Origin: a virus
Virus genome (UHGV): UHGV-0036730
Length of the DNA: 18,094 nt
Direction: 5' to 3' (one strand)
Part shown: one piece after another, positions 3,158 to 17,721 of the stretch
How the letters are laid out: every line of letters begins with the position of its first letter
How positions within the stretch are numbered: the stretch's first letter is position 1
The notes under the pieces: model-generated
Told to the model about the DNA's origin: nothing
Databases searched by the model: none
The model's input: the letters and a program-made list of their open reading frames with translations, nothing else
Position numbers and translations under genes: made by a program

Positions 3158-3475
3158 GGAGAGTGGCGCTATGTGCCATTGCATGGTGCCGGGTGCCTCC
3201 CGGTGAGTTCAGTATCAGCACCTGAACCCGCACAGAAAGGATAAGGGTCGGTGACAAAACACCAGTTGCTGATTGCCCCTCCGCACAGGGGGATTCACCA
3301 TGCCAGTTTCTTTTAACAAACTCCCCGCAAACCAGACAACAGTCAACCGCCTGAATTGTGAGGTATTTAAAAATTTCAACGGGTAACTGATACCCTGCTA
3401 ATCGCCTGATGCTTTCTTTTTCAGCAACGGGGAAGCAACAACCACCACACCCACCAGCCGCCCATTTACCACAAA

Positions 3476-3500
3476 TAAAAAAGCCTTCACTGCGGAAGGC
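3476..3500 (-). terminator. Rho-independent terminator (minus strand) directly after the 95-aa ORF
   Basis: Minus-strand hairpin gccttc-cgcagt-gaaggc followed by uuuuuuauuugu; the stop codon of the 3487..3774 ORF lies in the stem. Confidence 0.5.
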
Positions 3501-3774
3501 GTCTGTAACAACCGAACTGATAGTCTGCCAGACCCGCCATAACCAGCTGGGTCAGTATTAACTGGCAGCGTTCGCGTGAAAGGTAAGTATTCTGCGCAAT
3601 CTCCCCGACTGTCGCCGGGTAGGTGACGCTTAATTCATTAAACACCACTCTGGCGGTTTCTGTCATATCCTGCTGTTTTAGCATGTCTTTTTCCCTTTTC
3701 CGGTTAACGTGACATACCAATAACTCTTGTCTAAAAAGCCAGCAAGCTGAAAGACAGGTATTCACCACCAGCAC
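3487..3774 (-). CDS. Hypothetical protein, 95 aa or shorter, first ORF after tR'
   Basis: Track ORF. Alternative starts at 3684 (MLKQQDMTET…) or 3666 (MTETARV…). It has its own terminator. It occupies the slot where Stx phages carry tRNAs and stxAB. Confidence 0.35.
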   Translation of the reverse strand: MLVVNTCLSACWLFRQELLVCHVNRKREKDMLKQQDMTETARVVFNELSVTYPATVGEIAQNTYLSRERCQLILTQLVMAGLADYQFGCYRRLPQ

Positions 3775-3803
3775 GTTTACTGTACTGATGCGATTTCAGT
3801 CAT

Positions 3804-3830
3804 AAAAAACCCGCCAGGCGGCGGGTTTAA
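3804..3830 (-). terminator. tR'-like rho-independent terminator downstream of Q
   Basis: Minus strand: aaacccgccgcc-tggcgggttt hairpin followed by uuuuuau. About 55 bp downstream of the Q stop, as for lambda tR'. Confidence 0.55.
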
Positions 3831-3885
3831 GTTGTGTGGCGTAGTAACCACTCTTAACATACTGACATACTTTTTGCGGACCGCG
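3831..3885 (-). promoter_or_regulatory. Presumed late promoter pR' / qut region (positional inference)
   Basis: The interval between the Q stop (3886) and the tR'-like terminator is where lambdoid phages carry pR' and the Q-utilisation site. I could not pin -10/-35 hexamers. Confidence 0.3.
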
Positions 3886-4278
3886 CTAATCATTTTTTAC
3901 TTTTTTGGGCAGCCAGTCGTCCATCTCCAGCCTTACACCCAGCATCGACAGACATCCGTCAATAAATCCTTCAGCAATCTGCATCTCAATTCGTATTGCC
4001 TTTTCGCTCTTCTTTCTTGTTCTGGCAATCTGCCTTTTTGATATGCGCAGCAGATAATGAGCTACCAGCAGCGAATACTCGTCCGGTTTTTTCTTCTTCA
4101 GGCGCGTAAGGCAGTTTTCGATGATAAGGCCGTCATCATCGCTGCAGGCCGGGCGAGGTTTAGCGGTGGATGGTAAAAGGCCTTTAAATCCAGCAGCTAT
4201 CGGAGAATAGTCCACCCCGGTGTTACCACTTGCCGCCCATGCGCCCCAGCGTTCAAGCACCTGCTGAATATCACGCAT
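3886..4278 (-). CDS. Antitermination protein Q, phage 21 / QuuD-like family
   Basis: Track ORF 3886..4383 trimmed to the ATG at 4278: [37 protein letters not shown]… matches the recalled QuuD/Q21 N-terminus (MRDIQMVLERWGAWAA…). Overlaps the ninH stop by 8 nt; followed by a tR'-like terminator. Confidence 0.7.
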   Translation of the reverse strand: MRDIQQVLERWGAWAASGNTGVDYSPIAAGFKGLLPSTAKPRPACSDDDGLIIENCLTRLKKKKPDEYSLLVAHYLLRISKRQIARTRKKSEKAIRIEMQIAEGFIDGCLSMLGVRLEMDDWLPKKVKND

Positions 4279-4471
4279 CAGAGTCTTTACCCTTATCCCA
4301 TCCACGATGGACCATAAGGACACCGTTGACGACGGCGTGCCGTTTGCCTTCTTTATCGCCAATATATTTTCTGACCGTGGCACGATTACAGTTCAGTATT
4401 CGGGCCACTTCGGTCTGATTTCCATATGCCTCAACAAGCATGTCAGGAATGATTTTTACGGTGAACGTCAT
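4271..4471 (-). CDS. ninH: NinH
   Basis: [58 protein letters not shown]… is near-identical in pattern to recalled lambda NinH ([36 protein letters not shown]…). Confidence 0.8.
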
Positions 4472-5037
4472 GCGGCCTCACTTCTGCTGTTTCGCAGGCC
4501 TTTAAGTTTCTGTTGATACTCTGCCTTGATCGCCTTGCACTCTTCGACAGTCCAGCGGTGGCGACTATGGTTTGATTCGATTTCGTCTACTGCTTCCTGC
4601 CCGATGCGGTTAATCAGTTCGACGCGATACGGAACGAGATTTCCGCTTTTGTATTGGTTACACACCACGCATTGCTTATGGATATTGCGTTCATCAAATC
4701 TGAGCTGAGGTGCCGCAGCTGTTGTACGGTAATGGCCAGCATCCCACTGGGCTGAATCTAACGTCCCGCATGAAACACACGGCAAATGACGGTCCCGCTC
4801 CCTGATATAAGCATTCACAGCCTGTTGTGCCTGCTTAATCCAGTAACTGCGGGGCTGTAAGTCCCTCCTGCGCGCTTTCAGCTTGTCTGCCTGCTCTTTT
4901 GCTGAAGTTATCGCCTTTTCTTTTCTGACCAGTTCCAGTGCGCACTGACCACAGCAAACTTTCTGATATGAGCGGAACGGCACAAACGAGGAGCCGCACA
5001 CTTTGCATTTTTTGGGTTTACGTTGCTTCATCATCAC
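4468..5037 (-). CDS. ninG: NinG / Rap recombination-associated protein
   Basis: …[96 protein letters not shown]… is near-identical to the recalled lambda NinG C-terminal two-thirds. ATGA overlap with ninH. Confidence 0.85.
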
Positions 5038-5038
5038 C

Positions 5039-5488
5039 TCAGAAAAACGACAGCAGGCGGTTATTCAGTTCAGGGCTGTTTGAGCGCCCAAACACATGCT
5101 TTAACGCGGCATTAATCATTGCGTTGTAGCAACGTTCAAACTCATCCTGATCCATATTCGCGTAACTCAGGCTTTTTGCCCGATATCTCACCTCGCCTCT
5201 TATGGTTGTGACCACATCATAGAACCCGGCAAGAATTGTCAGATTTTTACGAAACTCATCAAACTGCGTCGCTTCATCAGAGAATTCGTATCCAGCATGT
5301 TCAGCGCACCAGTACTGAAAGCAGAAATTAAGAAAAGCGAACATCTTCCGGTGAAAAGATGGGTTACGGGTAAGTTTTGCTTCCAGTGTATACAGCTCAC
5401 CGTTTTTAAATTTTGCCAGTCGGGGTAAATCGCGCTCATACGCCGGTACAAATACGCCATTAGCCGCCTTGATCATCTCTATTTCCAT
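5039..5488 (-). CDS. Phage protein in the NinB position (DUF1367-like; family assignment tentative)
   Basis: Track ORF of 149 aa; start overlaps the primase stop (TGATG). No convincing match to lambda NinB from memory. Confidence 0.45.
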
Positions 5489-14046: not shown

Positions 14047-14328
14047 ATGCTCAATCAAAAAATAAATATCAATGTAAAAAGCGTCGTAACTCCAGCAGGA
14101 ACGATAATGGGAGAAGTTTTTATGGATGATAAAATCATCGCCTATTTTGTCGTCCTGTCTGATGAGGCTATTTCTGTTATTGATACGGAAGGCAATGTTA
14201 TGTTTATCGCAGAACATCCAGAAGACATCGCATTACAGGCCGCTGCATATTTCTTCGCTAAGGAGCAGGAGGAAGAATGTAACTGCCCTGTATGTCAGCT
14301 TTCCCGACAAATTAATTTAATGCATTAA
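14047..14328 (+). CDS. Hypothetical early protein, 93 aa
   Basis: Track ORF with AAGGAA ribosome-binding site; C-terminal CNCPVC motif. Confidence 0.4.
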   Translation: MLNQKININVKSVVTPAGTIMGEVFMDDKIIAYFVVLSDEAISVIDTEGNVMFIAEHPEDIALQAAAYFFAKEQEEECNCPVCQLSRQINLMH

Positions 14329-14348: not shown

Positions 14349-14630
14349 ATGAACGCATACCTCACCTGCGACCGCATAGAGGAGCGTCGCTGGATTAATC
14401 AGCAAATTCAGGATGAAAAGGATAAATGGATTGATGATCGGGCGCAGGAGCTTATCAGCATGTTCCCCGATAAACCATTGCTTATGAGCAGCCTTTTTTT
14501 ACCCAAAGAAGCCCAACTGGCACTCACTGGCGAAAAAGCTGAAGAGGCGTACAACGATTATATCTCAGCGATCGCCTATGCTCGGGCGGAAGAAGAATGG
14601 GAGAGAAAATTCTCCCCCTGTCCTTTCTGA
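14349..14630 (+). CDS. Gam-like host-nuclease (RecBCD) inhibitor, short form
   Basis: MNAYLTCDRIEERRWINQQIQDEKDKW… parallels the recalled N-terminus of the short lambda GamS form ([31 protein letters not shown]…). Lies immediately upstream of the recombinase-exo pair, in lambda gene order. Confidence 0.5.
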   Translation: MNAYLTCDRIEERRWINQQIQDEKDKWIDDRAQELISMFPDKPLLMSSLFLPKEAQLALTGEKAEEAYNDYISAIAYARAEEEWERKFSPCPF

Positions 14631-14646
14631 TTTTCAGGACCAAAAA

Positions 14647-15597
14647 ATGTTCGATATCGTTGAATTTGTTAAGCAGCAGGAGCGCTTTTTCTGCGAGGCA
14701 TTAACTGAACCGACGCTGACATGGGCGAAGGAAAGTCAGTTTGCAATTCAGCAATTCCAGAAAAATGCCTTTCTGGCTGACACAGCACGGGCAAATCTGC
14801 CCAGCGCACAGAACGCTATCATCAATGTTGCCGCCATAGGCATAACCCTGAACCCGGCCAGCAAGCTGGCGTATCTGGTACCACGAAAAAAGGCTGTATG
14901 CCTGGATATCAGTTATATGGGGCTTCTGCATCTGGCACAGGTCACAGGAGCCATTCAGTGGGGGCAATGCAAACTTGTTTACGAGAAGGACATTTACGAG
15001 TCCAACGGTATTGACTGCGCCCCCACGCACAAATACAACCCATTCGTAGACAGGGGCGCACGCATTGGCGGTTATTGTGTCGTAAAAACATCCGAAGGCG
15101 ACTATCTGACCGAAGAGATGAGCAACAGGGAAATCGAGGTCATCAGGGCGTGCAGCAAAGCCGGAAATAACGGAGGAAGTAGCCCGTGGGATAGTTTCCC
15201 CGATGAAATGGCCAGAAAAGCCATTGTTAAGCGCGCCAGCAAATACTGGCCCCGTCGCGATCGCCTGGATACAGCTATCGACTACCTGAACACTCAGGCC
15301 GGTGAAGGTATCATCCTGAATGCTGATCACATCCCTGAGCGTGACGTCACTCCCGCATCAGATGAGATTATCAATGAGATCACTCAGGCAATCACCGAAA
15401 TTAACAAGACATGGGATGACCTGCTTCCCGTATGTTCCAAAACATTCCGTCGCACGATTGCATCACATGAAGCTCTCTCTCAGGAAGAAGCTGTCAAAAC
15501 GCTTGATTTTGTCAAAAAGAAAGCTGCCAGAAACAAGGCCACGGCGGAAGCGAAAGTTCACGCCACCACGGAAAATAACAGCGAGGCCGTGTCATGA
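14647..15597 (+). CDS. Single-strand annealing recombinase: RecT-family core with a lambda Bet-like C-terminal tail
   Basis: Track ORF 14578..15597 trimmed to the ATG at 14647 ([11 protein letters not shown]…). The core carries RecT-like blocks ([24 protein letters not shown]; [16 protein letters not shown]; [14 protein letters not shown]). The last ~70 aa ([64 protein letters not shown]) closely track the recalled lambda Bet C-terminus. Stop overlaps the exo start. Confidence 0.75.
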
Positions 15598-16274
15598 CAC
15601 CAGAAATTATTCTCCAGCGAACTGGCGTGGATATTACCAGCCTCGACCAGGGCGATGATGGATGGCACAAGCTGAGACTCGGTGTTATCACTGCTTCAGA
15701 AGTTCACAACGTCATAGCCAAACCACGTTCAGGCAGCAAATGGCCTGATACAAAAATGTCATACTTCCACACCCTGCTGGCTGAAGTTTGTACTGGCGTG
15801 GCACCGGAAGTTAACGCTAAGTCGCTCGCATGGGGAAAGCAATACGAAGATGATGCCCGTGCCCTCTTCGAATTTATCGCGGATGTTACCGTCGCGGAAA
15901 CGCCAATAATTTTTCGTGACGAAAGCATGCGCACCGCCTGCTCTCCCGACGGTTTATGCAGCGACGGTAACGGTCTTGAGCTTAAATGCCCCTTCACTTC
16001 CCGCGACTTCATGAAGTTCCGGCTTGGCGGCTTTGACGCTATCAAGCCTGCTTACATGGCCCAGGTGCAATTCAGCATGTGGGTTACAGACAAGGACGCC
16101 TGGTACTTCGCCAACTACGACCCACGTATGAAGCGTGAAGGCCTGCATTATGTCGTGATTGAGCGGAATGAAAAGTACATGGCGAATTTTGACGAGATGG
16201 TGCCGGAGTTCATCGAAAAAATGGACGAGGCACTGGCTGAAATTGGTTTTGTATATGGGGAGCAATGGCAATGA
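15594..16274 (+). CDS. exo: Lambda-type exonuclease (Red-alpha / Exo, YqaJ-like)
   Basis: 226 aa, near-identical over its length to recalled lambda Exo (MTPDIILQRTGIDV…[55 protein letters not shown]…). Confidence 0.9.
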
Positions 16275-16429
16275 AGCATCCTCACGATAATATCCGGGTA
16301 GGCGCGATCACTTTCGTCTACTCCGTTACAAAGCGAGGCTGGGTATTTCCCGGCCTTTCTGTTATCCGAAATCCGCTGAAAGCACAGCGGCTGGCTGAGG
16401 AGATAAATAATAAACGGGAGAGTGTATGA
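16271..16429 (+). CDS. Small hypothetical ORF (52 aa) between exo and the 250-aa ORF
   Basis: ATG at 16271 overlaps the exo stop (ATGA); its stop overlaps the next ATG (ATGA). [52 protein letters not shown]. Gene status uncertain; below the ORF-track cut-off. Confidence 0.3.
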
Positions 16430-17178
16430 TTCATTTTCACGGTGGTCCAATAACTCCCGATACCTGTGCGTTGAAAGCCTGGAAAGGCAGACACGCATTC
16501 ATCAGTTTTGCTAATCCAGCTCAGATTGATCTGGCTTCCGAAGTCACCCAATCATTTGCTCTTGATAATGGTGCATTCACATTCTGGACAAAAAACAAGG
16601 CCATAGACTGGAATGAATATTACAGATTTGTTGAACGCTGGGGTAATCACCCTCGTTTCTCATTCGCGGTTATCCCGGATGTTATCGGCGGAACCAGTGA
16701 AGAGAATGACGCCCTGATTGCGGCATGGCCTCACGGTAAATTTATTGGTGCTCCGGTGTGGCACATGAACGAACCAGATGAGCGATTTATTCGTCTGTGC
16801 CATGAGTTTCCCCGCGTCTGCATCGGCTCGATGGGGGAATACGATGCAAAACGACCGAGAGCGTGTCGGGCTAAACTACGCGATCTTATACGTCATGTTG
16901 TAGATCAGTACGGCTACCCAATCACCAAGATTCATGGGTTACGGATGTTAAATAAAGACATTTTTACTCATGTACCGCTTTCGTCTGCAGACAGCACGAA
17001 CGTCGCAAGAAATATAGGCATCGACAAATCCTGGGTAGGTTCGCCATATGCTCCCGCAAGTAAAGAAACCCGTACGCAAGTTCTTGTGGAACGCATTGAA
17101 TCATTCAACAGTGCCAGTTCACTTAATTACAACGCTGAACGGGACGTCTTTACCCCTCAACTGGCATTCGAAGTGTGA
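16426..17178 (+). CDS. Conserved phage early protein of unknown function, 250 aa (tentative TGT/DpdA-like motif, see findings)
   Basis: Track ORF; translationally coupled upstream and downstream. Contains ALDNGAFTFW, reminiscent of the transglycosylase DSGGFQ motif, but the assignment is speculative. Confidence 0.5.
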   Translation: MIHFHGGPITPDTCALKAWKGRHAFISFANPAQIDLASEVTQSFALDNGAFTFWTKNKAIDWNEYYRFVERWGNHPRFSFAVIPDVIGGTSEENDALIAAWPHGKFIGAPVWHMNEPDERFIRLCHEFPRVCIGSMGEYDAKRPRACRAKLRDLIRHVVDQYGYPITKIHGLRMLNKDIFTHVPLSSADSTNVARNIGIDKSWVGSPYAPASKETRTQVLVERIESFNSASSLNYNAERDVFTPQLAFEV

Positions 17179-17185
17179 GGCCAAT

Positions 17186-17401
17186 ATGACAATAGAACAT
17201 AATAACGCCCTTCGCAGCATTGCCCGTCAGGCTAATTCTGAAATCAAAAAAGCCAGACAGCAGTTTCCGGATAAAAACGTCGATGACATTTGCCGTAGCG
17301 TACTGAAGAAGCACCGCGAAACGGTAACGCTGATGGGATTCACACCGACTCACTTAAGTCTGGCAATCGGTATGTTAAACGGCGTCTTTAAGGAACGGTG
17401 A
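17186..17401 (+). CDS. Hypothetical early protein, 71 aa
   Basis: Track ORF 17048..17401 trimmed to the ATG at 17186, which has a GAGG ribosome-binding site that overlaps the upstream stop. Confidence 0.4.
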   Translation: MTIEHNNALRSIARQANSEIKKARQQFPDKNVDDICRSVLKKHRETVTLMGFTPTHLSLAIGMLNGVFKER

Positions 17402-17499
17402 ACATGAAAAGCAAAATCATCAGGGAGCTACAGGCTCCTTTTTTATTATTCGCATTCACCCTCAAGCGTATTAACCAACAATTCAGGGATTAATGGAAG

Positions 17500-17721
17500 A
17501 TGGCAGACCTCATTGATTCAGCATCAGAAATTGAAGAATTACAGCGCAACACAGCAATAAAAATGCGCCGCCTGAACCACCAGGCTATATCTGCCACTCA
17601 TTGTTGTGAGTGTGGCGATCCCATAGATGAGCGAAGACGCCTGGCCGTTCAGGGTTGTCGGACTTGTGCAAGTTGCCAGGAGGATCTGGAGCTTATCAGT
17701 AAACAGAGAGGTTCGAAGTGA
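17500..17721 (+). CDS. TraR/DksA-family C4 zinc-finger protein (lambda Orf73-like)
   Basis: 73 aa with C-x2-C-x17-C-x2-C (CCECGDPIDERRRLAVQGCRTCASC), the same size and architecture as TraR. Confidence 0.65.
   Translation: MADLIDSASEIEELQRNTAIKMRRLNHQAISATHCCECGDPIDERRRLAVQGCRTCASCQEDLELISKQRGSK

Follow-up and report, generated by a model that had tools for sequence, protein, structure and literature searches.

A RecT-family annealase with a Bet-type C-terminal domain encoded beside lambda-type Exo in the virus genome UHGV-0036730

Which kind of single-strand annealing protein is paired with a lambda-type exonuclease in UHGV virus genome UHGV-0036730, and which part of it goes with that partner? 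The question arises from three co-directional genes at positions 14349–16274 of the 18,094-nucleotide (nt) stretch analyzed here (hereafter the window), encoding a GamL-like protein, an annealing protein (annealase) and an exonuclease. The original prediction, made from the sequence alone, took them for a chimeric recombination module whose annealase combines a RecT-type core with lambda Bet's C-terminal tail. We consider it probable that the annealase is modular and works in an Exo-tethered, phi80-style operon, and that its docking domain and the exonuclease gene exo move as a unit between annealing cores.

Two-part build of the annealase

The annealase (316 amino acids [aa]; gene at 14647–15597, + strand) is a two-part mosaic, its core belonging to the RecT family and its C-terminal domain (CTD) being of the Bet type. 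In split BLAST searches, residues 1–225 matched Rac RecT (33% identity over 157 aa, E = 4e-20), including the motif SKAGNNG, and did not match lambda Bet, while residues 226–316 matched Bet residues 186–261 (51% over 76 aa, E = 7e-25) and did not match RecT. Aligned separately against RecT and Bet, the N- and C-terminal parts thus fell to different families, and both the RecT-like core with its KAGNNG block and the Bet-like C-terminus, as first read from the sequence, were borne out.

Family models gave the same division. With TIGR00616 (RecT family) the protein scored 65.8 bits, above the cut-off of 52.65, and it had no match to TIGR01913 (bet_lambda), whereas lambda Bet showed the reverse NCBIfam pattern, with a bet_lambda score of 169.5 bits. 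It did not reach the Rac RecT equivalog NF007351 (71.8 bits against a cut-off of 296), indicating that it is not a Rac RecT orthologue. Because the Pfam family PF03837 (86.9 bits against 24) accepts Bet as well, Pfam cannot separate RecT from Bet, and NCBIfam and PHROGs were used instead. Among PHROGs, the core shared phrog_148 with Rac RecT, and the tail shared phrog_17377 and the C-terminal end of phrog_252 with Bet. In sequence searches against PDB the tail matched 8tfu (E = 1.7e-18) and 6m9k (E = 2.3e-14). When only the tail served as query, a word-indexed protein search yielded no more than six fragments, all of the same E. coli gene; an exhaustive search of a representative library returned 20 matches, mostly Bet fragments, and revealed a fusion to an ERF-family core (P0135).

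An AlphaFold2 model of the annealase was built from 42 homologues (mean predicted local distance difference test [pLDDT] 79). It comprised a core at residues 1–215, a disordered linker at residues 216–231 (pLDDT <50) and a confident three-helix bundle at residues ~239–300. The best PDB match of the core was RecT of Listeria phage A118 (7ub2; E = 2.3e-6, 206 columns), and no Bet N-terminal structure was among the 50 PDB matches listed for the model. The bundle superposed on 6m9k_D, the Bet CTD in complex with lambda Exo, with a root-mean-square deviation of 0.8 Å, a TM score of 0.91 and 51% identity, and it also matched 8tfu, the Bet CTD with the SSB C-terminal peptide.

On the + strand, the RecT-family single-strand annealing core, assigned from TIGR00616, phrog_148, BLAST and the structure match, corresponds to 14647..15291 and the flexible linker to 15292..15339. 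They are followed by the Bet-type CTD (residues 232–300; 15340..15546), a putative docking site for Exo and SSB, and by a 16-residue C-terminal extension (residues 301–316) with the stop codon (15547..15597). The extension has no counterpart in lambda Bet and, in an alignment with Bet and homologues, was seen only in the window type and in the E. coli protein P0009. The similarity breakpoint placed at residue 240 by the original prediction exists, but it lies further upstream, in the linker region at about residues 199–231; the linker contains or adjoins the recombination junction.

Association of the Bet-type tail with lambda-type Exo

The nuclease adjoining the annealase (exo, 15594..16274, + strand; 226 aa) proved to be a lambda-type 5′–3′ exonuclease, as had been claimed. 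It was 87% identical to lambda Exo across all 226 residues and passed Pfam YqaJ (PF09588) with 99.9 bits against 22 (E = 2e-28). In Exo alignment A3, D119, E129 and K131, which we take to be the active-site residues of lambda Exo, were invariant, and L91 and F94 of helix E were conserved.

Pairwise identities among 18 annealase/Exo pairs with three kinds of core were compared by a Mantel test. Tail identity was correlated with Exo identity (r = 0.82, p = 1e-4), while core identity was uncorrelated both with Exo (r = 0.16, p = 0.19) and with the tail (r = 0.09). The tail closest to that of lambda Bet was carried by the RecT-type Rec of phi80 (77%).

A natural recombinant was found in E. coli (P0009, locus L108). 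Over residues 1–198 its identity to P0118, a Salmonella-type protein with an unrelated tail, was 100%, and from residue 199 onward it was 95–100% identical to the window protein. The adjoining Exo was 97% identical to that of the window, and the DNA encoding the tail 98%. The switch of parent at residues 198/199 places the junction of the exchange just after the last core helix and before the linker.

Among 24 genome loci with this RecT-type core that were examined, nine had a Bet-like tail and 15 another tail. A lambda-Exo-type gene lay downstream in exactly those nine, immediately next to the annealase gene in eight of them, and none of the 15 had such a nuclease downstream. In the 15 loci the cores were still 60–68% identical and the tails unrelated; a 160-aa Sipho_Gp157 gene (PF05565) followed in 14, with an HNH gene intervening in one, and the fifteenth contig ended before the next gene. 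This other tail is ~80 aa long, with the motif ...LCDEMAQAE.MDDLK..F..AYK.T.GMKLQQNVQAIY.ECK (loci L007–L018, L022 and L024–L026; HK140, L113 2501–3878). The other tail and the Sipho_Gp157 gene may form a second tail–partner pairing. At allele level, among 78 IMG/VR loci, the window-type Exo allele occurred only with the window-type annealase (16 loci) and the lambda-type allele only with Bet (62 loci).

The Bet-like tail was also present on a third, unrelated kind of core, that of the ERF family: among 120 such proteins examined, 17 had it, the genera being Rouxiella, Serratia, Erwinia, Winslowiella, Xenorhabdus and Photorhabdus. In all four contexts inspected (three proteins), a YqaJ/Exo gene of 226–227 aa came directly next; ERF-core loci with a Bet-like tail and then a lambda-Exo-type gene are L115 (3501–4930), L116 (3501–4935) and L118 (3501–4930). 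ERF fusions P0135 and P0147–P0160 were located in lambdoid prophages of Rouxiella, Photorhabdus, Winslowiella and others, with tails 44–66% identical to that of lambda.

The Bet-like tail therefore occurred on RecT-, Bet- and ERF-type cores, and a lambda-Exo-type gene followed in every locus examined, adjacent in all save two. With a Bet core, a 206-aa helix-turn-helix gene lay between annealase and exo in Klebsiella phage ST16-OXA48phi5.2 (L111, 2731–3351). At L019, a 68-aa open reading frame (ORF; 4903–5109) lay between the two genes and the Bet-like tail was kept. In both, the inserted gene breaks the usual gene overlap, and the tail is retained.

Nucleotide homology to lambda began exactly at the start of exo and extended from 15593 to 16428 (84.6%), through exo and the following DUF1317 gene. 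The tail had no nucleotide-level match to lambda and so was not recently taken from it. The arrangement is an old one, in which the small tail diverges faster than Exo.

Some records depart from the intact arrangement. Among phage records, 96 matched the core at ≥95% and only 62 matched the tail. Recent recombinants joining the window core to a foreign tail were suspected from this difference, but the one record examined showed an insertion sequence (IS) instead: in Stx2a_JNE160313 (L112, ~3190–4500) an IS3-family element splits the annealase gene within the linker, near residue 229, with no tail seen beyond it. Up to 34 records may accordingly share an IS3-like or similar disruption. Two further loci, L040 and L041, carry a mere core fragment.

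Interface, proposed mechanism and rival readings

In lambda, helix E of Exo (T90, L91, F94 and T95) enters a pocket of the Bet CTD (L223, I227, F249 and L250), the binding sites of SSB and Exo on the CTD overlap (Caldwell et al., PMC6393309), and the complex requires each of Exo L91 and F94 and Bet L223 and F249 (PMC6393309). At these four essential positions the window pair has V (for L223) and F (for F249) in the tail and L (for L91) and F (for F94) in Exo. Elsewhere in pocket and ridge, the tail has T227 and V250 and Exo has A90 and I95, so that lambda L223/I227/L250 with Exo T90/T95 stands against V/T/V with A90/I95 in the window. Tail T227 together with Exo I95, where lambda has I and T, resembles a reciprocal exchange; since it is seen in one lineage only, we treat it as no more than a lead. 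Between the window and lambda Exo there were 30 substitutions, nine of them in residues 86–107 including helix E (Fisher p = 6e-4 for a region picked post hoc); because the region was chosen after inspection of the data, little weight is given to this clustering. Only two of the eight contact residues named in the Caldwell paper differ in the window Exo. Six further Exo substitutions cluster in residues 12–18, a region likewise picked post hoc.

We infer from the lambda structures and mutagenesis, from the homology of the CTDs and from the conservation of residues that lambda needs for its complex, that the tail binds both Exo and SSB, with partner specificity. In the proposed mechanism, GamL would block RecBCD, protecting linear DNA, and a trimer of the lambda-type Exo would resect the 5′ strand at a double-stranded end. 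The annealase would be held on Exo via its C-terminal three-helix domain, the homologue of the Bet CTD, and this tether would load the RecT-family core onto the 3′ single strand as it emerges. The three-helix domain would then probably pass the filament to host SSB at the replication fork, the site of annealing. In phages of Enterobacterales, the docking domain and the adjoining exo would shift as a unit among Bet-, RecT- and ERF-type cores, with exchange by recombination in or near the linker.

The comparison supports a domain swap, namely by the covariation of tail and Exo, the occurrence of the tail on three cores and the recombinant P0009. The mosaic and the staying of the tail with Exo, both contained in the original prediction, stood up to the Mantel test, P0009 and the ERF cores; the idea of a singular event did not, the architecture being widespread and old and including phi80. 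Several points weigh against the modular, Exo-tethered reading. The pocket keeps only one of lambda's four residues, with L223V, I227T and L250V, and the Exo ridge carries two changes (T90A and T95I); given these substitutions binding of the tail to Exo is plausible, not guaranteed. The window and lambda share 53% identity in the tail at 87% in Exo, a little less than the other pairs would lead one to expect, Exo identities of 85–90% there going with tail identities of 59–77%. Since the tail adjoins exo, co-inheritance as a mosaic block would produce covariation even without functional constraint. The CTD also binds SSB (8tfu), so that its conservation may owe more to host SSB than to Exo.

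The last two points lead to the chief rival reading, in which the tail is mainly a dock for host SSB and its association with Exo follows from the two being neighbours in mosaic blocks rather than from partner specificity. We regard this as unlikely, although much agrees with it: the Bet CTD has been solved with the SSB C-terminal peptide (8tfu and 8tg7), the SSB and Exo sites overlap (PMC6393309), the Bet-like tails found were all in Enterobacterales, which fits a host-factor constraint, and the tail is contiguous with exo, so linkage alone predicts the Mantel correlation. Within one host group, however, relatives that share the core have a different tail precisely where Exo is absent, which would be unexpected for a role in SSB binding only. 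From one tail type to another, helix E of Exo and the tail pocket also change in step, and the lambda complex has been solved and validated by mutagenesis; nor are roles in Exo and SSB binding mutually exclusive. A history with no swap, in which the Bet-type CTD is ancestral to the RecT/Bet superfamily, descended vertically and was lost or replaced in some lineages, seems to us very improbable. Bet and RecT do share one Pfam family (PF03837), and tails on RecT cores are old and vary widely (23–77% identity), but Rac RecT lacks one, tail relationships depart from core relationships (r = 0.09), the lambda Bet tail nests among tails on RecT cores, ERF-family cores carry the tail as well, and P0009 is a recombinant with a sharp junction. 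As for the whole protein being a divergent Bet or a divergent RecT without any similarity breakpoint, the database names of the same gene do vary (‘Bet’, ‘RecT’ or ‘recombinase’), but split BLAST, NCBIfam, PHROGs and the structure search all split the halves by family, and this reading is refuted, with next to no probability left to it.

Within the modular, Exo-tethered reading preferred here, a stronger form can be put forward only tentatively, and we hold it possible but doubtful: the Bet-type CTD may be a self-sufficient, portable adaptor that couples any core (Bet, RecT or ERF) to lambda-type Exo and enterobacterial SSB, with pocket and helix E co-evolving into exclusive pairs. If so, I227T together with Exo T95I could be a specificity switch that, in a co-infected cell, sets the pair apart from lambda Red as an orthogonal system.

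These loci offer a natural experiment on the source of partner specificity in phage exonuclease/annealase pairs. The occurrence of one docking domain on three unrelated cores, each then followed by a lambda-type Exo, suggests that a domain of ~65 residues carries specificity. Moved onto better annealases, such a domain could pair them with lambda Exo in recombineering with double-stranded DNA.

The idea of shuffling has been anticipated, and two papers already hint at it. A C-terminal domain remotely like the Bet CTD was described in passing as common to some proteins of the Sak4, RecT and Erf clusters, with domain shuffling suggested (Steczkiewicz et al. 2021, PMC8093625). A 2023 review states that similar use of the CTD by RecT and other non-Bet annealases ‘is unknown’ (PMC11611040). 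The present comparison extends the domain-swap reading to three cores, tail–Exo covariation and one caught recombinant. The premise that RecT normally partners with RecE, from which the original prediction started, was too simple: RecT-family genes often adjoin nucleases of the YqaJ/lambda-Exo family, and RecT-family genes beside YqaJ-type nucleases are common in Firmicutes phages (PMC8093625), so that ‘RecT with RecE, Bet with Exo’ is not a general rule.

Known systems, distribution and genomic surroundings

The module is the early-left (pL) operon of a Stx-type lambdoid phage (Sepvirinae/Oslovirus-like) and a phi80-style version of lambda Red. An annealase gene and a 5′–3′ exonuclease gene lie adjacent and co-oriented in one operon, the two-component arrangement of Red and RecET. 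The exo ATG overlaps the annealase TGA as ATGA (15594–15597). A ribosome-binding site, AGGA, was read from the sequence at 14636..14639 (+ strand), 7 nt 5′ of the annealase ATG (14647). A longer ORF in the annealase frame begins at 14578 but is not the annotated start; the start giving 316 aa matches the database cluster P0007 (831 members, 99% identity).

The gene at the head of the module (14349..14630, + strand; 93 aa) had been called Gam-like. An inhibitor gene is indeed present; it is not lambda Gam but GamL of the phi80 type according to the equivalog NF033500 (phi80_GamL), whose cut-off of 40 bits it passed with 149.8 bits. It belonged to phrog_1050 (1e-48), while lambda Gam sits in another PHROG (phrog_259). 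The Pfam family of lambda Gam, PF06064, was not reached by the window gene (E = 0.1; 13.3 bits where 25 are required), and the direct match to lambda Gam was marginal (BLAST E = 0.001 across 15 aa).

Among known systems, phi80 resembles the window in the order gamL–rec–exo, in its RecT-type annealase with a Bet-type CTD and in the overlap of the exo start with the annealase stop. Its annealase is only 56% identical to that of the window overall, compared with 81% for Exo, and its tail is nearer to the lambda tail (77%) than the window tail is (53%). Phi80 also has a Mog/agt gene beside gamL, which the window lacks, having an AbrB-like gene and kil upstream instead. Lambda Red shares with the window the operon position and order, an 87% identical Exo, a homologous CTD and orf60a/DUF1317 after exo, and differs in its Bet-family core, where the window has a RecT-family core, and in Gam, where the window has GamL. 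Rac RecET shares a homologous core (33% identity), SKAGNNG and the same PHROG; unlike the window protein, Rac RecT has no Bet-type tail, and the window has no RecE. In HK140 and Salmonella-prophage annealases the core is 69–73% identical to that of the window, but the ~80-aa tail is unrelated, no exonuclease is adjacent and a Sipho_Gp157 gene comes next. A 2025 survey of lambdoid Rec modules catalogued the annealing-domain type of this core (type 4) with Exo and GamL in phi80, with RecE, or without a nuclease (PMC12315714); in TL-2011c, catalogued in the same survey, the annealase core is 99.6% identical to that of the window.

The module is thus known and widespread (Stx phages and phi80) and is routinely named by annotation pipelines. 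It was 98–99% identical in >60 phage records, mostly of Stx2a converting phages, where the annealase is named ‘Bet’, ‘RecT’ or ‘recombinase’, and complete E. coli genomes carried it in 148 cases out of 5426, with the pair annotated by PGAP as ‘RecT family recombinase | lambda exonuclease family protein’. Homologues 58–67% identical over 85–95% of the length were found in genomes of Serratia, Yersinia, Morganella, Providencia, Proteus and Klebsiella.

On its 5′ side the module is flanked by a Rha-type regulator, kil and a 93-aa gene, and on its 3′ side by a DUF1317 gene resembling lambda orf60a. The 93-aa gene between kil and gamL (14047–14328, + strand) belongs to phrog_1635, of unknown function, and its product has the C-terminal end CxxC...CPVC; in one phage record it is labelled an AbrB family regulator. 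A comparison prompted by phage F004 found no tRNAs in the window. Carriage of stx2, as in F004, was considered and rejected, the toxin B-subunit coordinates mapped from F004 containing stop codons here.

Two genes 3′ of exo, a 250-aa gene (16426–17178, + strand) matched phrog_887, ‘queuine tRNA-ribosyltransferase’ (2e-99), and had no Pfam family match; its product could be a DpdA-like enzyme of 7-deazaguanine DNA modification. Further downstream, 17204–17613 (+ strand) was 97.8% identical at the nucleotide level to lambda 30500–30910 (orf61 side, b2/early-left region). This identity is far higher than the 84.6% across exo and shows a further boundary between mosaic blocks.

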